Shown piece after piece: positions 45,183-62,990 of a DNA stretch of 64,000 nt (positions within the stretch are counted from its first letter, which is position 1; each line of letters opens with the position of its first letter). A program made the translations under genes and the position numbers. A model generated the notes under the pieces. The model was not told the origin of the DNA. It did no database searches and worked only from the letters and a program-made list of their open reading frames with translations. Origin of the DNA: Alphaproteobacteria bacterium (GTDB taxonomy: Bacteria; Pseudomonadota; Alphaproteobacteria; GCA-2731375); NCBI GenBank assembly GCA_965225945.1, contig CBDDBZ010000039.1:256001-320000 (forward strand), written 5' to 3'.

Positions 45183-45822
45183 GGTCTCCGGCCTCGACGT
45201 CGATATCGGCCCGGTACCGATCCTGCGCGGCGTCACCCTGGAAGTTCCGAGCGCGAGCATGCGTGGCCTGATCGGGCGCAACGGCGCCGGCAAGACCACC
45301 CTCATGCGGAGCCTGATGGGCGCGCTCGAGCCGCGCGCGGGCAGTGCCAGGTTCGGGGGAGTCGAGATTCTCGAGCTCGCCGGCAACCGCCGCGCGCACC
45401 TGGGTATCGGCTACATGCCGGAAGATCGGCGGCTCATTCCCAATCTGACGGCGGAAGAGAATATTCTCTTGCCGGTTTGGGCGATCGGCGTTACCGACTA
45501 TCGCCGCCGCCTCGAGTGGATCTACGAGCTGATCCACGAAGCGGCCGCGTTCCGCGACCGGCCCGCCGCCGCGCTTTCCGGCGGTCAGCAGAAGATGGTC
45601 GCGCTGGCCCGCGCCCTTCTGGTCGGCACCAAACTGCTGCTGCTGGACGAGCCGATGGAGGGGATCGCGCCGGTACTGGTGGGACGAATCGCCGATATCC
45701 TGGCCGAGCTGAAACGGGAAGGCGAAGCCGTCCTCGTGACCGAATCCAACGACAGCCATATCGCCGACTTGCTCGACGGAAGCTATGTCATCGAGCGCGG
45801 CAGCGTCGTCAGACGAGACTAG
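45175..45822 (+). CDS. LivF-type ABC ATPase
   Basis: GRNGAGKTT, LSGGQQ, LLDEP. Confidence 0.9.
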   Translation: MLEVSGLDVDIGPVPILRGVTLEVPSASMRGLIGRNGAGKTTLMRSLMGALEPRAGSARFGGVEILELAGNRRAHLGIGYMPEDRRLIPNLTAEENILLPVWAIGVTDYRRRLEWIYELIHEAAAFRDRPAAALSGGQQKMVALARALLVGTKLLLLDEPMEGIAPVLVGRIADILAELKREGEAVLVTESNDSHIADLLDGSYVIERGSVVRRD

Positions 45823-46052
45823 CTGTTGTCCGACCCGGCCGGCCTAGGCGATGAACGTGATGGCGGGGACGGCCCGCCTTGCCCGCTCCGCCAACGTTGC
45901 TTGCTCGCCAATAACGAGGGTTTCTCGACCGAACGCTGTAACGCGCTTTGGAGTAGACTGCTAGCCTGTTATCGTCGTGATGGGTTCGATGACGGCCGCC
46001 GAGGTACGATGGTCGGAGACGCTCGCATGGTACAGAGCTCGGTTCGGATACG

Positions 46053-47105
46053 ATGAGCGATTATGACGAAAAGGTAGGCGGCATGAGTTTCGCTGATCTC
46101 ATCGCACCATTCGACGTTGATACCTTCCACAACACGGTGCGAGGGCGCCGGTGGCTGCATGTTCCAGGTGCGTCGGAAAAGACGAGTTCGATCTTTAACT
46201 GGGATCATTTGAACACGATCCTGAACATGGATGTTTGGACAGCCGGCACGGTGACCATCATGCTCGACGGTCAGCGTGCGCCGCCGATGTCCTATTGTAA
46301 CCGGACGGTCAATCGAAACAAACTGTCGGTAATGCAACCCGATCCAGGCAAGATCATCGACTTGATGCGCCATGGAGCGTCGATGGTCCTCGACGACATC
46401 GCGTCACTGGTGCCCTCGGTTGGCGCAGTGGCCGAGATCCTGAAGCGGACGTTCCACGCCAAGGCCGCGGCGAACGTATATTTTTCCCAAAAACGGCATC
46501 GCGCCTTCCAAGCGCACTACGACCGTCACGATGTCTTCTCCCTACAAATCCACGGCGAGAAGATCTGGCGCGTCTATCGGGGTCGGGCTGACAATCCGAT
46601 CGAGCACGATCGCTTCCTCAACATTCCGCAGGCCGAATATGACGGTCTCAAGGGAGCGATCGATCAGGAAGTCAGGATGGCGCCAGGTGATCTACTCTAC
46701 CTGCCGCGCGGTCTTTGCCACGATGCGCTCGCGGTCAGCGACCTCTCGTTGCATTTGACCTTCAGCTGCGCCTTGCCGATGGGTTTACACCTGATCGAGG
46801 ACATGATGGAGCGGTTGATCGGAGAATCGCTGTTCCGAGACGACCTACCCCGCATCGACGGGCGCGACGGCGAAGCCGCGCTCGCGGCCCGCATCGACGC
46901 GCTGATGACCCGTCTGGTCGAGATCTACGGTGGCGAAAACGGCTTGAAGCTGGCTGGCTCGATCATTCGGGGATTCGGCGACGACGCGTCCGCCGAGTTC
47001 GCCTTACCGAGTGTGAGGCCGATGGCATCAAAGCGCTCGGAACCGACCGGCGAGAGAGTGTCCGCTTTTACCGGTCACCGACTTGGTAGAATTGGGGACA
47101 GTTGA
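46053..47105 (+). CDS. JmjC/Cupin_4 2OG-Fe(II) hydroxylase (RoxA/YcfD-like fold)
   Basis: ANVYFS...HYDRHDVFSLQIHGEKIW...PGDLLYLPRGLCHDA...SLHLT. Confidence 0.88.
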   Translation: MSDYDEKVGGMSFADLIAPFDVDTFHNTVRGRRWLHVPGASEKTSSIFNWDHLNTILNMDVWTAGTVTIMLDGQRAPPMSYCNRTVNRNKLSVMQPDPGKIIDLMRHGASMVLDDIASLVPSVGAVAEILKRTFHAKAAANVYFSQKRHRAFQAHYDRHDVFSLQIHGEKIWRVYRGRADNPIEHDRFLNIPQAEYDGLKGAIDQEVRMAPGDLLYLPRGLCHDALAVSDLSLHLTFSCALPMGLHLIEDMMERLIGESLFRDDLPRIDGRDGEAALAARIDALMTRLVEIYGGENGLKLAGSIIRGFGDDASAEFALPSVRPMASKRSEPTGERVSAFTGHRLGRIGDS

Positions 47106-47380
47106 GGCAGTCGCAAAATGCTTGAGTGATCGTAGCTTAGTTTTTGGCCTTTGTCGATTTGACTCGTCTTCGGGGTTTTCGTGTTGATCGGGCCGCGATG
47201 AGACCGGCTTCGCTGAAATTTAGCCGTGGAAGAATAATTTCCCGCGATGAACGGGATTCGGGGCCTTCAGGACGGCCGGGTCTACCTATCGAACAAGCGC
47301 ATTACTCATGAGATGGTGATTGGCCGAGGCGCGGGGGTCGGGCCGACCCGGCTGCGCCATCCGCTCCTCCTTCCACGGAT

Positions 47381-48217
47381 TCACCTCTCCAAGGGCAGGT
47401 AGCCGAATCGCTCCATTGCGACGCGGTTGACCTCGACGATGTGCTCGACCTGTTCCACGCTCAGCACTTCCCGCCAGCCGTCGCGCCGGCCCTGGCGGAA
47501 GAAGGAGGGGTTGCGCGGGCTGCGCTCGCGAAAGCCGTCGCGTTCTTCTTGGCCCTTGAGTTCCTCGAAGGAGGCGAAGCGGATGGCCCGGGCCAGTTGT
47601 TCCCGATTCGGACGCAGGCCCAGGAAGCGGGCGATCTTGCCGAAACTCTTCTCCGGCGCGTCCAAGAGATCCTCGTAGCGCGCGACATGGATGGTGAGGC
47701 CCGGCGCTTGGACCCAGCTGAAGACATGGCTCTGCCAGGTGCTGAGGATCTGAAAGACAGTGCGCTCCGCCGTCACCGTGTGGTTGTCGTGGTGACAGAT
47801 TGCCGCCACTGCCTCTTCCATGGAGAGACCCAGATGGCGGGAATAGGAGACCACGACATCGAGCGGATTGCGCATCAGGTAGATCGCGCCCGCCGTCACC
47901 TCCGGCGTGATCGTGGAGACGCCGTCATAGGCGATGAGGGCGTTGTGGGTCTTCACAAACGTGGTGTCGGGGCGCAATTCGGCGAGATAACGATGCACCC
48001 GGGGCCGGAGCGCGTGTAGCACCGCGTCGCCCATCTCAACCAGCGGCCGCTGGGCCACCTCCTCGAAATAGCCGGCGCGGAGGTCGCTCGCGGTGAAGTC
48101 CGACAACTGATTGATCGGGAACGGCGTCTCCGCTCCGGTCAGCATGTTCGCCAGGAAGGCGCGGAGCCAGGTATTGCCGGATTTCGGATAGGAGGCGAGC
48201 CAGAGTATGGCGCCCAT
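47381..48217 (-). CDS. PAPS-dependent sulfotransferase (copy 3)
   Basis: LASYPKSGNTW, VKTH, RNPLDVVVS, RYEDL, FFRQG. Confidence 0.92.
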   Translation of the reverse strand: MGAILWLASYPKSGNTWLRAFLANMLTGAETPFPINQLSDFTASDLRAGYFEEVAQRPLVEMGDAVLHALRPRVHRYLAELRPDTTFVKTHNALIAYDGVSTITPEVTAGAIYLMRNPLDVVVSYSRHLGLSMEEAVAAICHHDNHTVTAERTVFQILSTWQSHVFSWVQAPGLTIHVARYEDLLDAPEKSFGKIARFLGLRPNREQLARAIRFASFEELKGQEERDGFRERSPRNPSFFRQGRRDGWREVLSVEQVEHIVEVNRVAMERFGYLPLER

Positions 48218-48881
48218 TATCGAGACCTCACGCGAGATAGCCGAAGCGGATCATCATCGCCTCGTTGACGGCGATGAGCGTGGCCACCTGTGCAGGCGAC
48301 AATACTTTCTTCCATCCCCCGGCGCGACCCTGGCGGAAGAACTGGACCGTGGTCGGGCCGCGTTCGACGAAGCCGTGCCGCCGTTCCTGTTCCTGCAATC
48401 GATCGAAGGCGGAGAATTGGATGGCGCGCTCGAGCTCGCGGCGCGCTGGCTCGCGGCCGAGATAGCGCGCGATGGCGCGCTGTCGGTGGCGATGAAAAAC
48501 CGCGCTTAGATGGTGATTTCAGCGACATCGGGCATCGTGGCGCTGTAGCTGCGTGGTTTGCAGGCGGGAGTTGGCTCGGCGCAGCGGTGGGTAAGTAGCC
48601 CGCCGCAGCGACCGCCAAGAGTCTGGCGGCGGCGGGCTGCTTATCCACCGCGGGCGGGCGTCTCGATTCCTGTTTTGGCTGGCTGGCGGCGGCGGTTCCG
48701 CGGACCTGACAAGGGGAGCCGCGGGAGTACACTCGGGCCGCTGAGAACGATGCGGCGCCGGCCCCGTTTGCTTGCTGGCAACGACCGGCACCGCACCCCC
48801 CGAGCCATGCAAGGCACGACCCATATGCGCAGTATCGTGCGGGTTTGGGCGTGGGTCCACCCCGTTCTCATCGGCTGCGCG

Positions 48882-49322
48882 ATGAAGAACACCGCCCGCC
48901 TGTTCAACTGCGCCTCGTGCCATCAACAGGTGGTTCTCTGCCGGCACTGCGACCACGGCAACATCTACTGTTCACGGAGCTGCAGCGATCGGGTGCGCCG
49001 GCGATCGCAGCGCCATGCCGGGCAGCGCTACCAGAACAGCCGGCGGGGCCGTCACAAGCATGCTGAGCGCCAGCGGCGCTATCGCGAACGCCGGCGGCGC
49101 CGGACGCCGGTGAATCGGCGCCGCGGGCAGGAAGTGACGCATCACCCTTTGACCGCCGCGCGGCGGCGTCCTGTTGTGGCGCGGACGCCGGCAGGGCGTC
49201 CCGGAACACGGCCCTTCGGGCACGAGCGGCCCGCCAGGGTCTTCCGCTGCGATCGCTGCGGCCGGTTCTGCGGGCAGGCGGTCTATCCGGGGCTGCGCCC
49301 GACGGGAAAGGGGGTGAGATGA
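48882..49322 (+). CDS. Cys-rich, Arg-rich small protein (putative Zn-binding), coupled to istA
   Basis: CASC...[15 protein letters not shown]...CDRCGRFC; ATGA overlap with istA. Confidence 0.75.
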
Positions 49323-50824
49323 CCATCGACAAGGAGACCCGCGCGGAGATCCTGCGCCTGTATCACGTCGAGAAGTGGACGGTCGGCACGATCACACGCC
49401 AGCTCGGCGTGCATCGCTACACCGTCGAGCGCCTCCTCACCGCGGCCGGCGAGCCCCGGGACGCGAGGTCGCCCAGGCCGTCGATGATCGATCCATACGT
49501 GCCGTTCATCGCCGAGACGCTGGCATCCTGGCCGACGCTGCCCGCCAGCCGGCTCTACCAGATGGTGCGCGAACGCGGCTATCCGGGCGGCGGCGACCAC
49601 TTCCGTCATCTGCTCAGCCACTTCAGGCCCAGGCCCGTGGCCGAGGCCTATCTGCGCCTCAAGACCCTTCCCGGCGAGCAGGCCCAGGTCGACTGGGGAC
49701 ACTTCGGCAAGGTGACGATCGGCCGCGCGGAGCGCCGCCTGATGGGCTTCGTGATGGTTCTCAGCTACTCGCGGCGGATCTTCCTGCGCTTCTACCTCGA
49801 CGCCGGGATGAGCAACTTCCTGCGCGGCCATGTCGAAGCCTTCGAGGCGTGGCAGGGCGTGCCCCGCGAGCTCTGGTACGACAACCTGAAGAGCGTCGTG
49901 CTGGAGCGCCGCGGCGCCGCCATCCGGTTCAATCCCCGGATCCTCGACCTCGCCGGCCACTACCACTTCCTGCCCAAGCCCGTCGCGGTCGCGCGCGGCA
50001 ACGAGAAGGGGCGCGTGGAGCGGGCGATTCGCTATGTCCGGACCAGCTTCTTCGCCGCCCGCCGGTGGCGCGATATCGACGATCTCAACGCCCAGGCCCT
50101 GGCCTGGTGCCACGGCATCGCCGCCGACCGCCCCTGGCCCGAAGACCGCTCGATCACCGTGCGCGAGGCCTTCGAGCGGGAACGCGGCTCTCTCATCGCG
50201 CTGCCCGGCGATCCCTTCCCCGACCACGACCGGGTCGAGGTCGCCATCGGCAAGACCCCCTACGCCCGCTTCGATCTCAACGATTACAGCGTGCCGCACA
50301 CCCATGTGCGGCGCACCCTCGTCGTGGTCGCGACGCTCGACGAGGTGCGCATCCTCGACGGTGTGGACGTCATCGCCAGCCATCCGCGCAGCTTCGACAA
50401 GGCGGCCCGCATCGAGAACCCCGAGCACATCGCCGAGCTGGTCAGGCGCAAGAGCCATGCCCGCCGCCTTCGCGGCCAGGACCGGCTGGTCCAGGCCGCG
50501 CCCAACAGCGAGCGCCTGCTCGCCGAGGCCGCCCAGCGCGGCGGCTATATAGGCGCCACCGTCGCCGCCCTGTTGCGCCTCCTCGACGCCTACGGCGCCG
50601 CCGAGCTCGAGGCGGCCATCGACGAGGCCCTGAAGCGGGACGTTCCCCATCCCAACGCCGTGCGCCTGAGCCTGACCCGGCGGCGCGAGCTGCGGCACCA
50701 ACCCCCGCCCATCCCCGTCGAACTGCCCGGCGATCCGAGAGTGCGCGACATCACTGTCCGCGATCACGACCTCGTCGGATACGACGGGCTGGCCGGCGAA
50801 CCCGAGGAGGACAGCGAGCAATGA
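49319..50824 (+). CDS. istA: IS21 transposase
   Basis: [23 protein letters not shown]. Confidence 0.94.
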
Positions 50825-51609
50825 ACGATACCCTCATGGGCCGTGCCCGGGCGCTCGGCCTGCACGGCCTCGCCGCCCACTGGGGCGAGGTCGCCGGGCA
50901 TGACTGGCCCGCTGCGCTGGTCGCCTGGGAAGAGGAGGAACGGCGAAGCCGCAGCCTCAAGCGCCGCCTCGGCGACGCCCGCCTCGGACAGTTCAAGCCG
51001 CTCGCCGACTTCGACTGGGCATGGCCGCGCCGCTGCGACCGCATGGCCGTCGAGGATCTCATGAGCCTCGAGTTCCTCAACGAGGCCGCCAACGTCGTCC
51101 TGGTCGGCCCAAACGGCGTCGGCAAGTCGACCATCGCCGCCAATATCGCCCACCGCGCCGTCCTCGAGGGCCACACCGTGCGCTTCGCCACCGCGGCCAG
51201 CATGCTCGGCGAGCTCGCCGCCCTCGACAGCGACACCCTGCTTCAGCGCAGGCTGCGCTTCTACGCCCGCCAACACCTGCTGGTGATCGACGAGGTCGGA
51301 TACCTGTCCTACAGCAACCGCCATGCCGATCTGCTGTTCAACATCGTCTCCAGCCGCAGCCAGCAGAACTCCACCATAATCACCACCAACCGGCCCTTCG
51401 CCGAGTGGGGTGAGGCCTTCCCCAACGCCGCCTGCCTCGTCGCCCTGGTCGACCGCCTCGTCCACAACGCCGAGATCATCGCCATCGACGGCGAGTCCTG
51501 GCGCCGCAAGGAGGCCGAGGAACGCCAGAAGCAGCGCAGCGCCGAGCGCCGCCGGCGGCGAGCCGGCAAGGCCGGCGTGCAGGACCGCGGGGAACCGCCG
51601 CCGGCGTAG
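50821..51609 (+). CDS. istB: IS21 helper AAA+ ATPase
   Basis: [26 protein letters not shown]. Confidence 0.94.
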
Positions 51610-51611
51610 CC

Positions 51612-52761
51612 ATGGATGGTCCCCGCCTCTGGGACCGGCGGGTGCGGGCCGAGGCCCTGCGAGGCTATCCCCTCGAAGACGTCGTCCGCCGCCTCGGCTA
51701 CCGCCGCGATCCCACCGATGCCGCGCGCTGGAGGCGTCCCGGATCCGTCATCAGCATCAACGGCTTTATGTTCTACGAACATCTGCGCGGCGAGGGCGGG
51801 GGCGGAGCGATTGAATCGGAATGGTGGTCTACCCGCACTACCAACTCCTGCCCCGGAATTGTGAAGGATCTGTTCGGGGCGGAAAGCCTCGCGCGGAGGG
51901 GCGGGAACAGCGCCGAGTCCGTCCAGGCGTCGTCGATGTGATCCGCGAACTCGGCGCCGGTCAAGCACATGGACGAACCGGCTTGCGGACCGACCTGCAA
52001 CGCCCATCACCTGCGCGAGTTGCAAGCCCTGATCGAGATCGAGAAGGAGGGCTGGGCACAAGATGGTAATCCATGCCTGCCGGTGCACCGTGCCCGAGGC
52101 CCTCGGCTTCTTCTCGGAACTGCCGTGCCGTGACCGGTTCCCGGCCGATCGCCACCCGAAGCCGCCGTGCCCGGACCGCCACTGGCCCGCCATCCAGAGC
52201 TACCTCGTCGAGCAGCGCGGCCTCGCGGATGTGCTCGTCGCCCTGTGCCGCGACCTCGGCTTGCTCTACGCCGACCGCCACGGCAACGCCGTGTTCGTCC
52301 GCCGAAACGCGGCCGGCGAGGCTCTCGGCGCCGAGATCGTCCCTGCCGCGGCGCCACGCCGCCTCGCGCCGACCGGCGCCGCCGCGCGCGGCGGCTTCTG
52401 GATGTCGTGGGAACCCGACTGGCCGAACTCCGTCATCCTCGCCAAGAACGCAATCGACGCCCTGTCGGTCCTCTCCCTCCACCTCGTCCCGGCCGGGCGC
52501 AAGGGATGCGCCGTGGTCTCAACCGGCGGCGCCACCGCAAGCCTCCCCGAATGGATCGAGGCCTGGAACCCCGGCCGGATCTTCTGCGCCTACGACGCCA
52601 CCCGCCAGGGCGATGACGCCGCGGCACGGCTCATCCGAAACGACAGCAGGGTCGTCCGCCTGCGCCCTGCCCTCGACGGCCTGGACTGGAACGACATGCT
52701 CATGCGCGCGACCGCGCCGGCGAACCGCTCCAGATCGATGACCGGCCCCTCGACTGAATAG
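51612..52761 (+). pseudogene. DUF3991/toprim primase-like passenger gene, interrupted by about 250 bp of foreign sequence
   Basis: ...FYEHLRGEGGGGAI | VIHA...YLVEQRGL...NAIDALS...STGG...CAYDA...DWND. Confidence 0.65.
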
Positions 52762-53463
52762 CCACAGCGCGAAACAAAATCAGCCAAGCCCAAAAGCATC
52801 CCGTCAGCCAACCGCCACCGACCGCTCAAAAAGAGCACCATATAAGCGCACCCTGGAACCACCGCTAACACGCGCCGAAGGTCGGCCTCGGTTTGGCCAG
52901 CATGTCCTCGTAGCGAACCACATGGGCGTTCAGACCGGAGGCATCGACCCAACTCGCGACATGCTGGCTCCAGCTACCCAATTGCGAGAACACGTTGCGC
53001 CCCAACGTCGGCAACCGATAGTCCTCGCGGCAGAGCGCCGCCACAGCGTCGTCCAGCGATAGGGCGAAATGATCGGCGAACGAAACCGCGACGTCGCGGG
53101 GGTCGCGTAGCACATAGATGGCGCCCGCCGTTAGCTCGGGCGTGATGGTCGCGATCTCGTCGAGACGGACGACGGCATTGTGGGTCTTGACGAAGACGGG
53201 CTCGCGGTCGAGGCCGGCGAGGAAGCGATGAACGTGGGGCCGCAGGCGATGCAGGCGCGCTTCGTCGAGCTGTTCGATGTCGGTGCCCGAGGCCCGCTCG
53301 AACAGTCCGGCGCGGGAATCGCTGTAGCCGAATTCCCTGAGCATGTTGATGTCGACGGGCTGGTCGGCGGCGCCGCGGAGATTGGCCAGAAAGGCGCGCA
53401 GCCAGGTATTGCCGGACTTGGGATAGGACGCGAGCCAGATGATCCCCGACACGGCCGTGAGAC

Positions 53464-54291
53464 CTAAGGCAGATAGCCGAACTCGGCCATGACCTCGCCG
53501 TGGGCCCGGACCATGCGGTCGATCTGCGCCGATGTGAGCGCCTCGCGCCACTGTCCGGCCCGGCCCTCGCGGAAAAAGGCCTCGGCGCTACGGCTCTTCT
53601 CGGCGAAGCCGTGGCGCTTCTCCTGGCGGCGCATTTCGGCGAAGGAGGCGTTGCGGACGGCGCGGCGTAGGCGGCCGCGCGGCACCTTCAGGTCGAGGAA
53701 GTCTGTGATTCCCCCGAACCCGTCGAGCGGGCTCGCCAACAGATCTTCGTAGCGCACGACATGGCGATTGAGCCCCGACGCCCGGGTCCAGCCGCGCACA
53801 TGGCCGCTCCAATCGCCGAGATACTGGAACACCGCGGCGGCTGAGGTGGTGACGTGATTCTCGGGCGAGGCCATGGCTGAGATCGCCGAATCGAGGTCGA
53901 GGCCGTAGTGATCGCCATAAGAGAGGACGATGTCGAGCGGGTTGCGGACGAGGTAGATCGCGCCCTCCGTCACCTCCGGCGTAATGGTGGCGATGTCGTC
54001 GCGCGTGGCGATGGCGTTGTGCGTCTTGACCATCGCGGTCTCCGCCCGAAGGCTGGCGAGCAGACGGTGGACCTGGGGCCGTAGCGAATGGATTTCAGCG
54101 TCGGAGATCGCGCCGACCGGCTTGCCGGCGACCCGTTCATAGAGGTCGCTCGACATCTCGCCCAGGAAGTAGCGCCCGAGGTCGTTGATGTCGTACGCCG
54201 ACTTGGCGTCCGAGAACAGGTTGGCGAGAAAGATGCGGAGCCAGGTGTTGCCCGACTTCGGATACGAGGCAAGCCAGAGAATGCCCGCCAT
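53464..54291 (-). CDS. PAPS-dependent sulfotransferase (copy 1)
   Basis: LASYPKSGNTW, VKTH, RNPLDIVLS, RYEDL, FFREG. Confidence 0.92.
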   Translation of the reverse strand: MAGILWLASYPKSGNTWLRIFLANLFSDAKSAYDINDLGRYFLGEMSSDLYERVAGKPVGAISDAEIHSLRPQVHRLLASLRAETAMVKTHNAIATRDDIATITPEVTEGAIYLVRNPLDIVLSYGDHYGLDLDSAISAMASPENHVTTSAAAVFQYLGDWSGHVRGWTRASGLNRHVVRYEDLLASPLDGFGGITDFLDLKVPRGRLRRAVRNASFAEMRRQEKRHGFAEKSRSAEAFFREGRAGQWREALTSAQIDRMVRAHGEVMAEFGYLP

Positions 54292-54366
54292 GTCCACTCC
54301 CGACGGCAAGGCGTCGCGCGTCCGAATTTCGTATCGATGACGTGAACATCCCGAGACTCGGAGCCG

Positions 54367-54398
54367 AAAAAAGAAGGAGCGGCCTAAGCCGCTCCTTC
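54367..54398 (-). terminator. Rho-independent terminator of the porin gene
   Basis: GAAGGAGCGGC-loop-GCCGCTCCTTC followed by a T-run on the minus strand. Confidence 0.8.
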
Positions 54399-54420
54399 CC
54401 GTTCTAGACTTACGTCTCGA

Positions 54421-55565
54421 TCAGAACGACACCTTGATGCCGCCGACGACGTAGAAGCCGTCGTCGTTGGAGCCGGGACCGCCAAGCTCGTCATCCAGGT
54501 TGGCGTACGCGATCGAGCCCTTCAGGGCGACGCCCGGGCCCAGCTTGTACTGAGCGCCGAGGTGGATCGTATCCACTTCGTCTTTGCTGGTATCGGCGAT
54601 GAGGTCGTCACGCTCGCCATGCTTCCAGATGATGCTCACGCCCCACGGACCCGTCTCGTAGGCGAGGCCGACCGCGTAACCGGTGTTGTCCGCACTGACC
54701 GTGCCGTCCTTGCGATCGATCGAATCCAGCGCGGTGCCATAGTAGCCGCCCAGGCTGAAGCCGCCGACGCCCAACAGGGCGCCGAAGATGAGCGTTTCCG
54801 GATCGCTGCCGGTGTTGCCGGACGGCTTCTCGCCGTGGGCGTAGCCGCCGGAGACCTTCACGCTCACCTGGTCGAACTTGGTAATGTAGTTGGCGCCGAG
54901 CGAGAGGACGTTGCTGATCTTCGTATCGTTGTCGATGGCGTTGCTGTCCTGATCGCCACAGGCCGGCGTGTAGGAGAGGCCGAACTGGAAGCCGGTGAAA
55001 CGGGGCGTGTAGTAGGTCAGCCGCTTGTCGTCGTTACAACTGTTGTCGACCTCGATATTGGCCGAACCCAGGGGGCGCGGAACTGATCGAAGTGACTGTT
55101 GCCGCCACCCGCCGCGAAGATGGTGTAGTTGATCCACTGGCTGTCGTCGCCCGACATCGTCGTGATGCCGAAGTCCTTCGGTCCGTAACCCATCGCGTAC
55201 TGCGCCGAGTTCTCCGAACCCATCAGGAACTGACCCCAACCGCCGGTCAGCCTGATGTACGATTCGTCGATCTGGTCGCCGCCGGTGTTGCCCTCAAGCT
55301 CGACGTGGTACTGGACCTTCAAGCCGTTGTCCAAGGTGGCACGCGCGTTGAAGAACACCTCGGCGTCGCTCTTGTGGTCGAAGTCGCTCAAGGCCACGCC
55401 ACCGGCGACACCGGGCGTGGTGTCGTCGTTGTCGACGGACCTGAAACCGAACCACTGTTCCATGTAGCCGTTCAACGATGCCTCAAGCCCCGCGGCAGCC
55501 GCGGGACCGGACATCAGGACACCCGCGGCCACGAGGGCCGAGGTGCCGAGTAGAAGCCTTTTCAT
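54421..55565 (-). pseudogene. Outer-membrane porin (Porin_4 type) with -1 frameshift in a G5 run at 55071-55075
   Basis: Signal MKRLLLGTSAL, LDNGL...VELEG...QIDE, YYTPRF.GFQFGLSY, C-terminal KVSF; adding one base restores the frame. Confidence 0.88.
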
Positions 55566-55951
55566 CCGGTTTCCCCTCTGAGAGATGTGTTACCCGTCCA
55601 AACAATTCCGCCAGCCTGGGCGCCACGGGGGGCACAACCGGCAAGCGCTGCCATAAGGCCGTCTAGCGCCCTCGGGGTCAAGCGCGCGGTCCCCGCGCCG
55701 GGAGCTATAGTCCCCCACTGTGGCGTGCTTGTCACACATCGGGAGAGCGACCGGTACGGATGACTCGAAAGTACCCGTGCCGGTGGCCCACCGAAGCCTC
55801 CAACGGCCGTGGGTCTTGCGGTGTAGGTGCGCGGTTGGTATGCCTTACCGACGCGGCGGCGGGGAAGCAGGCGGCCGCAAATTTCACGGGGTCGAATCTC
55901 GCCGCGCGATGCCTGGACAGGGTGAGGCCGGAAATGACGAGGGCGGGAAAG

Positions 55952-56524
55952 ATGAGACGATGGCACGCGGGCGCGCGCATCGCCGTGTGCCTCCTCGGCG
56001 TGATGGGGCTCGCCGCGTGCGAGGGGGCGGATGTCAAGAGTCAGTATCCTCGGCCCGTGCCGGGCGGGACCACGGACCCCTCGCCCGAGGCGCCCCAGGA
56101 TTCGATCTTCGGCACCGGCGGCTTCGGTTCCACCATCTTCGGTACCGGCAGCCGCGAGGAGGCGGCCGCGCGGGCGGCACGCGGCGCCACCGGCGGCGGC
56201 ATCGGCGTCAATGGCTATCTCTGGCGGGCTTCGCTCGACACCATGTCGTTCATGCCGCTCGCCTCGGCTGATCCCTTCGGTGGCGTCATCATCACCGATT
56301 GGTACAGTCCGCCGGAAAGCCCCGACGAGCGGTTCAAGGCGACGGTCTATATTCTGGAGCGTCAACTACGCGCCGACGGTATCCGGGTCGCGGTGTTCCG
56401 GCAAACCCGGGCGGGCGGGCGCGACTGGCGGGATGCACGTCTGAACGCGCGGACGGCGACGGAGTTGGAGGACGCCATCCTGACCCGGGCGCGGCAGCTT
56501 CGGATCAGCTCGCTCGGCGAATAA
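55952..56524 (+). CDS. DUF3576 lipoprotein
   Basis: VNGYLWRASLDTMSFMPLASADPFGGVIITDWY; LAAC lipobox; upstream of leuS. Confidence 0.9.
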   Translation: MRRWHAGARIAVCLLGVMGLAACEGADVKSQYPRPVPGGTTDPSPEAPQDSIFGTGGFGSTIFGTGSREEAAARAARGATGGGIGVNGYLWRASLDTMSFMPLASADPFGGVIITDWYSPPESPDERFKATVYILERQLRADGIRVAVFRQTRAGGRDWRDARLNARTATELEDAILTRARQLRISSLGE

Positions 56525-56607
56525 CGAATCCGCGCCCGCGCGCCGGCTTGACCGGTGGAAGTGGTGCAACCATTATCGATTCTCGATGTCTCTGATTGGA
56601 ATCCGGC

Positions 56608-57778
56608 ATGAGTTCTCATGCTGCCGTGCCCTCCCTCCCGGTTTTCGAGGTGGGCGATCGGATGCCCGATTTCGTATTGCCCGACGTTAGTGGCGCGCCC
56701 GTCGGTTACTATCTTTCCGCGATCGGCAATCTTTCCGCGATCGGCAAGCCTCTGGTCTTTCCGCGATCGGCAAGCCTCTGGTCTTTCCGCGATCGGCAAG
56801 CCTCTGGTCCTGGTAATTTGCGCCCATCCGAATGGAGAGGTGCTGCGACCGTTCGCGGAGCGCGCCGAGGCCTTGGCGGTCGCGACGGTGATTTTCGTCA
56901 CCTCGCTACCCCCTCTGGAGAATGCCGCGCTCGCCCAGGAGCTGCGATTGCCCTTCGCGCTGTTGTCCGATGTTTCCGGTGAGGTCGTCACCGCCTTGCT
57001 GAACGATGGGCGAGGGGCTAAGTCGATGCCGCGAGTCGCCACCTTCACATCCGATCCCAATCAGCGGATACGACGGGTCGATCGCGGTCGCCACGCGGCG
57101 CGTCAGGTCGAGAAGGCGCTCGGTTGCCTGAAGCGGATGCTGCCACCGCCCGATCCGGTGCCGGTCTCCCGACCGGCACCGCTGCTCTACGTCCCGGGCG
57201 TACTCGACGCGGCAGGATGTCGGGACTTGATCGGGATCTGGCATCGCGAAGGCAACGTCGATACGGGCACCATCAATGTCTTCAACGACCGCGTCGAGAC
57301 CAAGGATCACGGGACCAAGGTCCGCCGCGACCACTACGTTCGTGACCGGCGGGTCTTGGCCGACCTCTCCCTGCTCATGGATCGGCGCATCGTGCCCGAG
57401 GTCTCGAAGGCTTTCTGCTTTCGGGTCAGCCGCGTCGAGGAGTTCAAGATCGGTCGTTACACGGGCGAGGAGGGCGGCTTCTTCCGCCCCCACAAGGACA
57501 ATCTCTCGGAAACCACGGCGCATCGCCGTTTCGCCATGTCGCTCCTGCTCAACGATCCCGACGCGTATGAAGGCGGCGAGCTTCGGTTCATGGAGTACGG
57601 CCCGGAACTCTACAAGCCCGGGGCCGGTGACGCGGTGGTCTTCAGTTGTTCCTTGTTGCACGAAGTGTTGCCGGTGACCCGGGGCAAGCGGTTCGTTCTG
57701 TTGTGCTTCATGTTCGGTGACGCGGAGGCGCAAGCCTTGGAGGCGCGGCGTCGCCGCGACGCCGCGACCGCGCGGTGA
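56608..57778 (+). pseudogene. AhpC/TSA-fold + 2OG-Fe(II) oxygenase fusion, frameshifted by tandem duplication
   Basis: VGDRMPDFVLPD (redoxin start); FRPHKDN...YEGGEL...[13 protein letters not shown] (HxD..H..R). Confidence 0.85.
56712..56807 (+). repeat. Tandem repeat: one 18-bp partial plus three 26-bp units TCTTTCCGCGATCGGCAAGCCTCTGG
   Basis: Exact copies at 56730, 56756 and 56782; partial copy at 56712. Confidence 0.95.
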
Positions 57779-61965: not shown

Positions 61966-62990
61966 GGCTCAATTCGTGAATTGTATGCGTCACCTTGTTA
62001 CGGCGGCGGCGAGGCAGGCTCGGTCATTGGCGCCGGGGGCGAGGCCGACGAGGTGGAACCAGCTCAGGTAGTTGTCCAGATAGCGGGTGGCGATGCCGTG
62101 GCGGGGACGCAGGAAGTCCTTCAACCGGCTGTGGCGGCTGTTCACCGTCTGCACATGCAGATCGCCCCGAACCCGTTCCCCCATCGAGCGGTTGAGTGCT
62201 TCGTGGCTCACCCCGAGCGCGGCGGCGCACGGTGGGTAGCTCGCGCCGCCGTCGGAGACCAGCAGGGCGTCCTTCGCGACCACCGGGTCGAGGGCAGCCG
62301 TGAGCGCCGCCGCATCGACCCTGGGCAGCACCGCGCTGACCGTCGTTCCGCTCCGGTCCGCCGCCATGAGAACCGGTACCTGCTCGCGCGAGAGGCCGCG
62401 CTTCTTCGCCTTGCCGCCCCGCCGCCGTGCCTTGCGCCCCAGCCCGCGCGCGCCCTTCCGGCTCTCCAGGACGTAGGTCTCGTCCGCTTCCACGATCCCC
62501 TTGAGCACCTCCGAATCGCTCCGCGCCGCCGCCAGAAACCGGTGACGCCAGCGGAACGCCGTGCTCACCGCCACGTCGCAGCGCGCCGCCGACGCCTTCA
62601 CCGTCTCCCCCTTCGCCAGCGACGCCCCGAACGACAGCCAGCGTTCCTTGTGGTGCAAGCCCGACAGCGGCGTACCGCTCAGTGCGTTGAAGGTCCTGCC
62701 GCAGCCCTTGCACTGGTAGCGCCGCAGACCCCGCGCCATACCGCGCGAAACCGCCCCTTCGCTCGCGCAGTGCGGACAGCGCCGGGCCTCGTCCACACCA
62801 AGCTCGATCGCGGCCTTCGATGCCTCGCCCTCGCTCCGGCCCGACAGCACCGCGAGCGCCTCGCGCCGCTGCGCGCGCGTCAGCCCGCGCGCCGCCGAAA
62901 GCCACACCTGGAAACCCTTGCCGTCCATAACCCAACCTCCTGACGTTCCAGGCACTCTATCACTAATGCATACAATTCACGAATTGAGCC
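61966..62990 (-). mobile_element. IS1595-family insertion sequence
   Basis: Perfect 23-bp IRs GGCTCAATTCGTGAATTGTATGC; 8-bp TSD TTAGGTAA. Confidence 0.95.
61990..62928 (-). CDS. IS1595 transposase
   Basis: CPHC...CKGC Zn ribbon, IVEADETY, VSDG, HVQTVNSRHSRLK, YLDNYL. Confidence 0.93.
   Translation of the reverse strand: MDGKGFQVWLSAARGLTRAQRREALAVLSGRSEGEASKAAIELGVDEARRCPHCASEGAVSRGMARGLRRYQCKGCGRTFNALSGTPLSGLHHKERWLSFGASLAKGETVKASAARCDVAVSTAFRWRHRFLAAARSDSEVLKGIVEADETYVLESRKGARGLGRKARRRGGKAKKRGLSREQVPVLMAADRSGTTVSAVLPRVDAAALTAALDPVVAKDALLVSDGGASYPPCAAALGVSHEALNRSMGERVRGDLHVQTVNSRHSRLKDFLRPRHGIATRYLDNYLSWFHLVGLAPGANDRACLAAAVTR

Follow-up and report, generated by a model that had tools for sequence, protein, structure and literature searches.

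The window, that is, the whole 64,000-nucleotide stretch of DNA analysed, contains the following genes and features between positions 46053 and 57778; leuS comes after the last of them.

46053..47105, plus strand: JmjC_2 (ROX-type) Fe(II)/2OG oxygenase, 350 aa, apparently intact (Pfam JmjC_2, 81.2 bits vs a cutoff of 22)
47240..47256, minus strand: terminator-like hairpin 3' of ST_C (consensus scan), where the ST operon probably ends
47381..48217, minus strand: ST_C, PAPS-type sulfotransferase (ST), 278 aa, intact (Pfam Sulfotransfer_1, 86.6 bits)
48234..48473, minus strand: C-terminal part of ST_B, 80 codons (tblastn; ST_C residues 195–274 align with 53.8% identity)
~48481..52870, no strand assigned: IS21-family element, 4.39 kb, inserted in ST_B (NF033546, 249 bits; IstB_IS21, 180.6 bits)
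48558–49322, inside the element: Cys/Arg-rich ORF
49319–50824, inside the element: istA
~50821–51609, inside the element: istB
52063–52761, inside the element: DUF3991/Toprim ORF (Pfam)
~52871..53452, minus strand: N-terminal part of ST_B, ~194 codons (Sulfotransfer_1 profile positions 4–170; tblastn; ST-HMM positions 2–194)
53464..54291, minus strand: ST_A, PAPS-type sulfotransferase, 275 aa, intact (Pfam, 80.9 bits)
54367..54399, minus strand: intrinsic terminator of the porin, with a 12-bp GC-rich stem, 4-nt loop, and U6 tail (RNA fold z-score −2.8)
54421..55565, minus strand: Porin_4 gene with signal peptide and C-terminal Phe, frameshifted (Pfam Porin_4; N-part 56.3 bits, C-part 100.8 bits)
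55760..56524, plus strand: DUF3576 lipoprotein (Pfam, 150.9 bits), with a probable start near 55934–55952
56608..57778, plus strand: AhpC/TSA-like + 2OG-FeII_Oxy_3 oxygenase (YbiX-like), frameshifted, ORF 56618–57778 (Pfam, 57.9 bits)

Every gene named in the earlier note was found in its place by Pfam, and the terminator assigned there to the porin (~54399–54367) proved to be real. Overlooked in the same note, three genes are broken, namely, the porin by a frameshift, ST_B by the IS element, and the redoxin–2OG oxygenase by another frameshift. The copy in this genome is thus partly decayed, and ST_A, ST_C, and the JmjC gene are the only ones that look functional. The porin is split over two frames, with its N-part covering porin-HMM positions 9–157 and its C-part positions 159–376, as expected if a C5 run (55068–55072) had lost a single base; this 1-nt frameshift may be genuine or may stem from faulty sequencing. 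The insertion severs the C-terminal 80 codons of ST_B from the remainder of the gene. The IS21 reported earlier is indeed present and can now be described as a single 4.39-kb element (ends uncertain by ~2 nt) with two ORFs beyond istA and istB; it has imperfect terminal inverted repeats, whose motif is confined to 48502 and 52836, and a 4–5-bp GC-rich flanking repeat, and only its istAB core resembles plasmid IS21 elements (73–76% identity). In the redoxin–2OG gene, the native frame, starting with the ATG at 56608 and matching the N-terminus of the family, is lost within perfect 18-nt and 26-nt tandem repeats (56711–56809), the frameshift arising from expansion of the 26-nt repeat. The 386-aa ORF represents the other frame, which rejoins the true one past the repeats, and the 13 aa that set a near-identical public protein apart fall precisely in the repeat zone.

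ST_A, ST_B, and ST_C are minus-strand Sulfotransfer_1 paralogs with pairwise identities of 50–53%. Because the homologs are 275–283 aa long, the true start of ST_A is M7, and ST_C retains all columns that are invariant in a 97-sequence ST alignment. The STs have a 5'-PSB loop from residue 9 and no signal peptide, and their best PDB sequence matches were Teg12 (E 5.8e-27), Teg14 (8.4e-27), and StaL (1.2e-16). The AF2 model of ST_A (pLDDT 92), a single, compact 275-aa domain, gave the ternary complex of Teg12 as its top Foldseek match (TM 0.70), and after these glycopeptide sulfotransferases the matches, by sequence and by Foldseek, are cytosolic SULTs. The STs carry PAPS-type motifs and are cytoplasmic enzymes of the Teg12/StaL/SULT type. 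In the ST tree, clades S1 and S2 each have 100% support in Rhodobacterales; such old paralogs kept in a fixed order suggest distinct roles.

Since many SULTs acting on phenols and steroids are among the nearest solved relatives, a small acceptor is equally compatible with the fold. The cytoplasmic STs might sulfate small hydroxyl or phenolic compounds, whether an osmolyte, a signal, a xenobiotic, or phenolics from plants or algae, the porin serving as the outer-membrane route for the substrate in or the sulfated product out, and the paralog arrays having overlapping substrate ranges like animal SULT isoforms. About 46 of the 50 PDB matches listed are small-molecule or sterol SULTs, the structural matches are alike, and the compact single domain suits this explanation, as do the ST copy number of 1 to 5, the mostly separate transcription units of porin and ST, and an adjoining CysN/C fusion that would provide for a high sulfation flux. 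However, the top three PDB sequences and the distant relatives act on or adjoin peptides, TPR-fused STs and a ROX-type JmjC protein are unusual partners for such a pathway, and among the surveyed loci the module has no recurring inner-membrane importer or exporter. We regard small-molecule sulfoconjugation as possible, though on balance somewhat unlikely.

The neighbourhood survey covered 76 related loci, obtained from the best 80 of more than 599 matched stretches (1.22 Mb fetched). The earlier note would have been refuted had the enzymes proved unlinked to porins or to each other in related genomes; the porin–ST linkage was recurrent, in favour of its core claim. According to the porin HMM, Porin_4 adjoins the ST(s) in 52 of the 76 loci, which span at least 14 named genera or families and several kinds of genomic context. 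The nearest pair was co-oriented with the porin first in 44 loci and the ST first in 5, the other 3 having another orientation, and the median gap was 135 nt. Indeed, all 70 porin-matching ORFs in the 1.22 Mb lay within 3.6 kb of an ST, with none elsewhere in the flanks. The gene ratio was far from constant, the extremes being L031, with a single ST and four porins, and L020, with five STs and a single porin. A strong terminator was detected by the hairpin and T-run scan between porin and ST at 28–32 of 47 porin-to-ST junctions, so that co-transcription is not the rule.

Such linkage might be nothing more than synteny passed down within a stable region close to the origin. Indeed, 35 of the 52 porin-positive loci share one parAB-holA-lptE-leuS-DUF3576 block, so that the independent events are far fewer than 52, and the terminator parting porin and ST is in keeping with the absence of a functional link. 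Against this, the pair is kept where both flanks differ, in 17 loci outside the leuS-DUF3576/yggS synteny block (e.g., Roseovarius and Pelagivirga), and also in reversed order (L034, L039, L042, L051, and L069) or as a mirrored duplicate (L043), and the adjacency persists at a leucyl-tRNA synthetase identity of only 61–65% across loci. Moreover, in five gammaproteobacterial loci a TonB-dependent receptor leads the operon in place of the porin, followed by TPR-STs and an ST, and with a 2OG oxygenase in all except L074; their ST clade is nested inside the alphaproteobacterial ST tree. This operon is a parallel system, again led by an outer-membrane barrel. Mere synteny is thus highly doubtful as an explanation, and the porin–ST module, kept across many alphaproteobacteria, is real. 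DUF3576, beside leuS in 37 of the 76 loci, belongs to conserved synteny with leuS and lies outside the module.

The module takes the form of a gene for a Sec-exported Porin_4, ending in a strong intrinsic terminator and followed, after ~50–100 nt, by 1–5 tandem genes for cytoplasmic STs, and the window holds a copy of it with the porin, its terminator, and then the STs. Elsewhere, it extends to TPR-Sulfotransfer_3 proteins, a CysN/C fusion, and hydroxylases of the Fe(II)/2OG class, either ROX-type JmjC or YbiX-like. The TPR-sulfotransferase partners, overlooked in the earlier note, are the more frequent, with TPR-Sulfotransfer_3 or TPR-only proteins in 22 of the 76 loci; the CysN/C fusion (PAPS supply) lies beside an ST in 5. 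The hydroxylases are sporadic accessories, not core parts. The JmjC–ST linkage proposed earlier does recur, in 5 of the 76 loci, where the JmjC gene is wedged between porin and ST, directly upstream of the latter with a 3–16 nt gap. In the window, the JmjC gene is convergent with the ST operon and has a GC3 of 0.72, below its neighbours. Its nearest PDB entries are NO66, MINA53, YxbC, and YcfD; H155, D157, K170, H223, and H234 are invariant across 19 aligned homologs, and the subfamily is small (259 matches at E ≤ 1e-5) and confined to module-carrying taxa. Linkage of the redoxin–2OG oxygenase, also proposed earlier, recurs in only 3 of the 76 loci in three differing arrangements, and its membership of the module is doubtful. 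The family is large (at least 1116 members in many phyla), and H292 and D294 are invariant in the homolog alignment; the AhpC-TSA match of the local ORF is weak (E 0.011, 16.1 bits vs a cutoff of 26), a cutoff that its homologs attain.

Among the surveyed loci, no inner-membrane transporter and no scaffold-biosynthesis gene recurs in the module, which leaves the barrel protein as the sole conserved candidate substrate. Nor does a glycosyltransferase or lipid A gene recur there, which argues against an envelope glycolipid as the target of sulfation and optional hydroxylation. Such a target might be lipid A, the LPS core, or some other lipid of the outer membrane, where the close packing of LPS with porins would account for the link to the porin. 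LpxO and KdoO are examples of Fe/2OG hydroxylases that modify LPS, rhizobia have LPS sulfotransferases, and lptE adjoins the module in the conserved block, all in accord with such a target; yet Roseovarius-type loci lose the lptE adjacency with the porin–ST pair intact, and no carbohydrate or lipid STs are among the nearest relatives of the module STs. A glycolipid acceptor is therefore quite improbable. A polypeptide encoded elsewhere, such as a peptide that is secreted or a further protein of the envelope or the ribosome, is an unlikely substrate, too, if slightly less so, the porin adjacency then reflecting co-regulation or a shared envelope function. Five informative alphaproteobacterial loci have an ST without a porin in the fetched flanks (L023, L032, L037, L055, and L057), the solved JmjC relatives hydroxylate ribosomal proteins, and distant ST relatives tailor lasso-type peptides, as would be expected in that case; on the other hand, there was no conserved small ORF within 2.5 kb of the modules, the recurring ones all being shadows of leuS, DUF3576, and yggS, and no RiPP maturation genes were present beside the porin-linked STs.

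Our best guess among these readings, with a probability of roughly 0.35, is that the STs act on the precursor of the neighbouring porin. By analogy, the TPR-Sulfotransfer_3 and TPR-only partners, together with the JmjC kinship to ribosomal-protein hydroxylases, point to a protein substrate. The module enzymes would act in the cytoplasm on a polypeptide, most likely the precursor of the adjacent porin; a hydroxylase, where present, would install a hydroxyl on it, and the STs would use PAPS to O-sulfate the new hydroxyl or a Tyr, Ser, or Thr, the paralogs serving different sites. The modified chain would leave via Sec and fold into the outer membrane, and the folded porin would gain fixed negative charge at the surface or within the pore. 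The porin alignment shows generic Porin_4 motifs and no special acceptor motif, which counts against this reading, as do the fold's fit to small acceptors, the terminator at most junctions, the uneven ST:porin ratios, and the five loci with an ST but no porin in the fetched flanks. We know of no sulfated bacterial porin, and the literature searched gave no report of one and no description of a porin–ST module; the retention of this pairing across many alphaproteobacteria hints at an undescribed envelope-related sulfation system.

Teg12, Teg13, Teg14, and StaL resemble the module STs most closely, as best PDB matches by sequence and fold and in a nearly identical N-terminal PSB loop, and the tandem Teg paralogs sulfate different hydroxyls of one peptide scaffold. 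They belong, however, to NRPS glycopeptide clusters of actinomycetes or eDNA, whereas here the constant partner is a porin, without scaffold-biosynthesis genes. In the available part of PMC4892823, RaxST is said to sulfate tyrosines of RaxX and of the outer-membrane protein Omp1X (Omp1X/Ax21), a claimed substrate of the kind proposed here. Likened by description, the RaxST–RaxX system of Xanthomonas also has a cytoplasmic PAPS-dependent ST acting on a ribosomally made, exported, and adjacently encoded polypeptide, but its precursor is a small peptide with an exporter of its own, whereas here we found neither a small ORF nor an exporter. Same-family STs, 33–34% identical, occur in lasso-peptide clusters of the related alphaproteobacteria Thalassobaculum sp. 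OXR-137 (plasmid) and Tistrella mobilis (pTM1), and a table in the available part of PMC10040529 includes a lasso cluster that has an aspartyl beta-hydroxylase besides its STs, pairing a hydroxylase with STs on a peptide; their genes for PqqD, cyclase, B2 protease, and ABC exporter are absent from the porin-linked modules. As for the JmjC protein, YcfD/RoxA, NO66, MINA53, and Bacillus subtilis YxbC are the closest solved relatives, with the HxD...H iron ligands conserved, but in 5 loci the gene lies between porin and ST and not near ribosomal genes.

In the Escherichia coli fiu-ybiX and Pseudomonas aeruginosa piuA-piuC pairs, the gene of an outer-membrane barrel adjoins that of a PKHD-type 2OG-FeII_Oxy_3 hydroxylase of unknown substrate. 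The window oxygenase matches the YbiX models weakly, missing the equivalog cutoffs widely (32–48 bits vs 143–399), and adds a redoxin-like domain, and those pairs lack a sulfotransferase. In Aah/AIDA-I and TibC/TibA, the gene of a heptosyltransferase adjoins that of its outer-membrane target, which is modified in the cytoplasm before Sec export. Although these concern glycosylation of autotransporter adhesins and are experimentally demonstrated, they follow the same logic of adjacency as that proposed for the porin and its STs.

The three tandem minus-strand sulfotransferases (STs) of the window, ST_A, ST_B, and ST_C, lie behind a Porin_4 gene and belong, together with it, to a conserved module that moves as one unit and varies in copy number; the copy in the window is partly decayed. 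As the substrate of the STs, we favor the porin precursor, with a probability of roughly one in three. Pfam and NCBIfam scans of the ORFs in the window (G+C, 67.7%) gave the following gene order:

40.8–45.8 kb, liv-type ABC transporter operon
46053–47105, plus strand, JmjC_2 oxygenase
47381–48217, minus strand, ST_C
48234–48473, minus strand, last 80 codons of ST_B
about 48481–52870, 4.39-kb insertion between the ST_B halves
about 52871–53452, minus strand, first ~194 codons of ST_B
53464–54291, minus strand, ST_A
54421–55565, minus strand, Porin_4 gene
55760–56524, plus strand, DUF3576 gene
56608/56618–57778, plus strand, 2OG-FeII_Oxy_3 oxygenase
after the oxygenase gene, leuS and then lptE/holA-like ORFs
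61990–62955, just past holA, IS1595-family (ISXO2-like) transposase gene

All the genes named in the earlier note, which had proposed a hydroxylate-then-sulfate system around the porin, were confirmed, with three corrections, namely the lesions in the porin, ST_B, and oxygenase genes that were lacking in that first description; the interpretation given there found support in part. The IS1595-family transposase gene is a second mobile element less than 15 kb from the module. Around the JmjC gene (45500–47500), the G+C content is 0.59–0.61, versus 0.65–0.71 in the surroundings, and the GC3 of the gene itself is 0.72, versus 0.8–0.9 in its neighbors; these low values suggest that the JmjC-bearing end of the cluster is a later acquisition than the DNA around it. 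An Rfam search of 45.5–58.5 kb of the window (E ≤ 0.1) gave no match, and in seven related loci it gave two tRNAs only and no riboswitch clue.

ST_B is split by a single mobile element of 4.39 kb, the ends of which align as imperfect inverted repeats and are ambiguous by about 2 nt. A 14-nt end motif has two matches in the window, solely at the element ends (0.05 expected), a GCGC(G) repeat flanks the element, and the TGT...ACA terminal repeats and short target duplication of the IS21 family were found. Moreover, istA scored 249.1 bits with NF033546 (cutoff, 160) and istB 180.6 bits with IstB_IS21, the istAB core sharing 73–76% DNA identity with annotated IS21 elements. A usual IS21 element measures about 2–2.7 kb and carries istAB alone, whereas this one is larger and contains two passenger ORFs inside the inverted repeats, one Cys/Arg-rich with no family match (48558–49322) and the other of the DUF3991/Toprim type (52063–52761). 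When the whole element was compared with plasmids by megablast, the istAB core was the sole match, the passenger ORFs finding none.

The porin gene, which encodes a signal peptide (start, MKRLLLGTSALVAAG) and a C-terminal Phe (end, IKVSF), is distributed over two frames, and its two parts gave Porin_4 scores of 56.3 and 100.8 bits. Aligned to an HMM built from 50 related porins, the N-part ORF corresponds to positions 9–157 and the C-part ORF to 159–376, the frame switching at a C5 run (55068–55072). Deletion of a single C would produce such a switch. As the gene carries no further damage, the lesion would be either a mutation of very recent date, fitting slipped-strand deletion of one C, or a homopolymer sequencing error.

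In the oxygenase gene, the frame is interrupted at 56711–56809 by two perfect repeats, detected with Tandem Repeats Finder in the 5′ coding region (18 nt × 2.1 copies, 56711–56747; 26 nt × 3.1 copies, 56730–56809). The frame from ATG 56608 matches the consensus GDxxPxFxLPDxxG...AxGxPxVL of the redoxin-2OG family alignment (A6) and is then out of frame past the repeats; the 386-aa ORF from 56618 lies in a different frame and rejoins the true one downstream of them. This ORF scores 16.1 bits against AhpC/TSA (cutoff, 26; profile positions 43–123), whereas its homologs reach the cutoff, and the missing N-terminal strand of its redoxin domain is encoded in the other frame, starting at 56608. The repeat number varies, as a nearly identical public protein (P0241) is shorter by 13 residues precisely at the repeat zone, and because 26 is not divisible by 3, gaining or losing copies toggles the reading frame. 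The repeats may amount to a switch resembling phase variation or may be an artefact of the assembly.

The tandem STs behind the porin score above the Sulfotransfer_1 cutoff of 22 (ST_C, 86.6 bits; ST_A, 80.9; N-part of ST_B, 55.0), and their pairwise identity of 50–53% marks them as old paralogs. Their genes abut (ST_A stop, 53464; ST_B alignment from 53452; ST_B end about 14 nt before the ST_C start), and a terminator-like hairpin (47256–47240) lies 3′ of ST_C. In an alignment of 97 family members (A3) including ST_A and ST_C, the PKSGxTW loop, which we take to be the 5′-phosphosulfate-binding motif, has invariant S9, P11, S13, G14, N15, T16, and W17, with K12 conserved in at least 90%; K89, H91, R116, D120, S124, F240, F241, and G244 are likewise invariant, and the FFRxGxxGxW motif is invariant or nearly so. 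Presumably, as assigned by homology, these positions include the catalytic His and the 3′-phosphate-binding residues (Arg/Ser, FFRxGxxGxW). ST_A and ST_C carry all the family-invariant columns, and the N-part of ST_B also keeps the phosphosulfate-binding loop. This loop begins at residue 9 of ST_A, in which no signal peptide was found; periplasmic STs were rejected, as the enzymes lack a signal peptide.

The AF2 model of ST_A (pLDDT, 92.0; pTM, 0.90) gave 110 Foldseek matches in the PDB at E ≤ 0.001, the best being the Teg12 ternary complex (TM, 0.70), followed by SULT1/SULT2, and a 20-sequence ST profile searched against the PDB retrieved Teg12 (E = 5.8e-27), Teg14, and StaL, then cytosolic SULTs. 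The STs bear the full set of PAPS-type motifs of the peptide and phenol class and have a SULT fold, and PAPS-dependent transfer is predicted from their sequences; the family is large, with 6762 proteins at E ≤ 1e-5 among 8000 candidates scored. The fold fits small molecules equally well, which counts against the porin precursor as the acceptor, and sulfoconjugation of a small molecule, for which the porin would serve as a conduit, is possible though doubtful. Transporter genes, scaffold-biosynthesis genes, and small ORFs are all missing from the module, which is one reason for favoring the porin precursor.

Relatives with 33–34% identity to the STs occur in lasso-peptide clusters on plasmids of Thalassobaculum sp. 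OXR-137 (locus L077) and Tistrella mobilis (pTM1; locus L078). Both clusters comprise PqqD, an Asn-synthase-like cyclase, a B2 protease, an ABC transporter, and a nucleotidyltransferase; in pTM1, a second ST, an HPr-kinase-like gene, and a TPR protein are present as well. A table in PMC10040529 lists a lasso cluster that combines sulfotransferases with an aspartyl β-hydroxylase. The module itself was rejected as a lasso or NRPS cluster, such genes being absent: neither among its recurrent neighbors nor in 32.6–63.5 kb of the window did we find NRPS, lasso, or other RiPP genes. Conserved small ORFs (25–90 aa, within 2.5 kb of the modules) formed recurring clusters that were all shadow frames of leuS, DUF3576, or yggS and yielded no candidate precursor peptide. 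Nearest and distant ST relatives alike handle peptides, which favors the porin precursor; with the small ORFs reduced to shadow frames, a different polypeptide as the substrate is unlikely.

The neighborhood survey suggested in the earlier note was carried out by scanning GTDB species representatives with an ST alignment (A1), which yielded 76 loci (flanks up to 10 kb) from the best 80 of at least 599 matched stretches; the best identity to ST_A in this sample is 49%, the closest relatives (74–91% identical) lying outside it. Searched by tblastn with the window proteins, these loci of the best 80 contained the porin in 49, DUF3576 in 37, leuS in 36, JmjC in 5, and the redoxin-2OG oxygenase in 4 (one a 61-aa fragment). 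By HMM calls, from which porins and STs were counted, a porin is present in 52 of the 76, and the nearest porin–ST pair is co-oriented with the porin upstream in 44 of these 52, co-oriented with the ST upstream in 5, and otherwise oriented in 3. The postulated porin–ST linkage therefore recurs in related genomes, at least within the best 80. In the 1.22 Mb fetched for this sample, 70 ORFs gave a porin hit, and each of them is found no more than 3.6 kb from an ST. The usual context is parAB, holA-lptE-leuS-DUF3576 (minus), porin-ST(n) (plus), and yggS-ykuD, but 17 porin-positive loci of the best 80 lack it, both flanks differing in Roseovarius and Pelagivirga; the gene order is reversed in five, and one (L043) is a mirrored ST-Por/Por-ST duplicate. 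Among cultured strains, Thalassobaculum fulvum KCTC 42651 (porin-JmjC-ST-TPR-ST), Parvibaculum indicum DSM 25305, Roseovarius pacificus DSM 29589, and Pelagivirga sediminicola BH-SD19 have an intact module. Full-length ST copies number one in 48 of the 76 loci, two in 20, three in 5, four in 2, and five in 1. In a tree of 118 rows, the first and last STs of Rhodobacterales-type arrays form two separate clades (100% support each), indicating that these paralogs are old and have kept their order. Contigs binned as Anaerolineae (L001) and Candidatus Sulfotelmatobacter (L045) also carry the module, L001 in a typical alphaproteobacterial leuS-DUF3576 context and L045 without it over the stretch fetched; these two contigs probably come from alphaproteobacteria and were mis-binned.

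Among the 24 porin-less loci of the best 80, 10 form a gammaproteobacterial clade, 9 are uninformative, their flank being shorter than 1.5 kb on one side or both, and 5 are informative alphaproteobacterial exceptions (L023, L032, L037, L055, and L057). These five loci with an ST and no porin speak against the porin precursor, as do the widely varying ST/porin copy ratios and the inflation of the linkage counts by shared ancestry. So does the terminator between porin and ST. At 47 junctions with the porin upstream (46 in 45 loci and that of the window), the median gap is 135 nt, and a hairpin with a T-run follows the porin stop at 32, of which 28 fold at −18 kcal/mol or below; as a rule, then, the porin forms a separate transcription unit and the STs come directly behind it. 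In the window, the terminator ascribed to the porin is clear by RNA folding, while a consensus terminator scan missed it. That porin and ST share no functional link is the least likely of the readings considered. A special acceptor motif was sought in the porin alignments, where generic Porin_4 motifs only were seen, and this too weighs against the porin precursor. Complex prediction for the ST–porin pair of one locus (L040; alignments A3 and A4) scored 0.00, a value that speaks neither for nor against binding.

TPR-Sulfotransfer_3 proteins (540–690 aa, no signal peptide) or large TPR-only proteins matched by tblastn in 22 of the 76 loci from the best 80 (17 alphaproteobacterial and 5 gammaproteobacterial), and a Pfam check of nine alphaproteobacterial ORFs gave TPR plus Sulfotransfer_3 in five and TPR only in four. 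A TPR-only gene of about 375 aa lies on the minus strand between DUF3576 and porin/ST in six loci (L005, L039, L040, L042, L049, and L051). A CysN/C fusion (sulfate adenylyltransferase subunit 1 plus APS kinase) adjoins the ST in five loci of the best 80. The proposed linkage of JmjC to the module does recur but is sparse (5 of the 76 loci of the best 80): the gene stands between porin and ST in L027, L037, L047, L048, and L054, ending 3–16 nt before the ST start, and the five linked STs fall in one clade, which implies a single event, or possibly two with the window included. For the redoxin-2OG oxygenase the linkage proved weak; its position is that of the window in L032, directly upstream of the porin in L049, and beside yggS in L057.

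The window JmjC_2 (81.2 bits; cutoff, 22) keeps all the columns invariant in its family alignment, including H155, D157, H223, and H234, invariant in 19 sequences. Its solved relatives are NO66, MINA53, YcfD (ribosomal protein L16 arginine hydroxylase), and YxbC; solely the names of these relatives might point to ribosomal-protein hydroxylation, whereas its gene context is porin and ST, with no ribosomal genes. The subfamily is small (259 hits), with Pelagibius, Denitrobaculum, Kiloniellaceae, Rhodovibrionaceae, and Geminicoccaceae as named sources. The 2OG-FeII_Oxy_3 domain of the other oxygenase (57.9 bits; cutoff, 27) has invariant H292 and D294 and H348 and R358 conserved in at least 90%. 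Its family of at least 1116 members from many phyla usually combines AhpC-TSA with 2OG-FeII_Oxy_3, and no conserved Cys was found in the redoxin domain of the family alignment; the window protein stayed below the NCBIfam equivalog cutoffs for YbiX (PKHD-type hydroxylase; 32.4–48 bits versus 143–399). Contig sizes are shared by ST and JmjC homolog hits (522,412 nt) and by two STs and a redoxin-2OG homolog (4,840 nt), which are leads and not evidence. The TPR fusions and the ROX-type hydroxylase point to a protein substrate and thereby favor the porin precursor; an envelope glycolipid in its place is quite unlikely.

An outer-membrane (OM) barrel gene also heads the gammaproteobacterial cluster. 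The gammaproteobacterial ST clade (10 loci) nests within the alphaproteobacterial tree, and 5 of the 10 loci show a tight same-strand operon of a TonB-dependent receptor, TPR-STs, ST, and TPR-ST; all of these five but L074 also encode a 2OG-FeII_Oxy_3 oxygenase of 196 aa. In these Lysobacterales-type loci (L058, L060, L065, L071, and L074; e.g., L060:2-10857), a DUF4097 gene and an ECF sigma factor gene lie downstream on the opposite strand. The window lacks any homolog of the TPR-STs, of this receptor, or of its 2OG oxygenase. The parallel operon, starting with an OM barrel, likewise favors the porin precursor. More tentatively, dedicated enzymes encoded next to OM β-barrel genes may hydroxylate and O-sulfate the barrel proteins in the cytoplasm, ahead of Sec export; the targets would be general porins in many Alphaproteobacteria and, in some Lysobacterales, a TonB-dependent receptor. 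The enzymes would be the SULT-like STs, TPR-sulfotransferases, and Fe/2OG hydroxylases; the modification could alter pore charge or mask phage or predator receptors, and the frameshift-prone C-run of the porin and the 26-nt repeat of the oxygenase might serve as on/off switches.

Porins, which rank among the most abundant proteins of the bacterial surface, provide major routes for nutrients as well as antibiotics and commonly serve as phage receptors. If true, OM-barrel hydroxylation and sulfation would add a new class to the modifications of bacterial surface proteins; more broadly, a conserved porin–ST partnership would point either to a new OM-protein modification or to a new sulfated metabolite, the latter made by many marine and soil alphaproteobacteria. 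The module also offers an initial genomic entry point to three large families, the ~275-aa SULT-like STs, the TPR-Sulfotransfer_3 proteins, and the YbiX-like oxygenases beside OM barrel genes.

Our literature searches found no description of a porin-linked or TonB-receptor-linked sulfotransferase module. The closest enzymes, Teg12, Teg14, and StaL, are glycopeptide-antibiotic sulfotransferases. As pairs of genes, fiu-ybiX and piuA-piuC offer analogies to the module, as do Aah/AIDA-I and TibC/TibA. Closest in logic is the RaxST-RaxX system, whose sulfotransferase RaxST, according to the abstract of PMC4892823, sulfates the outer-membrane protein Omp1X.
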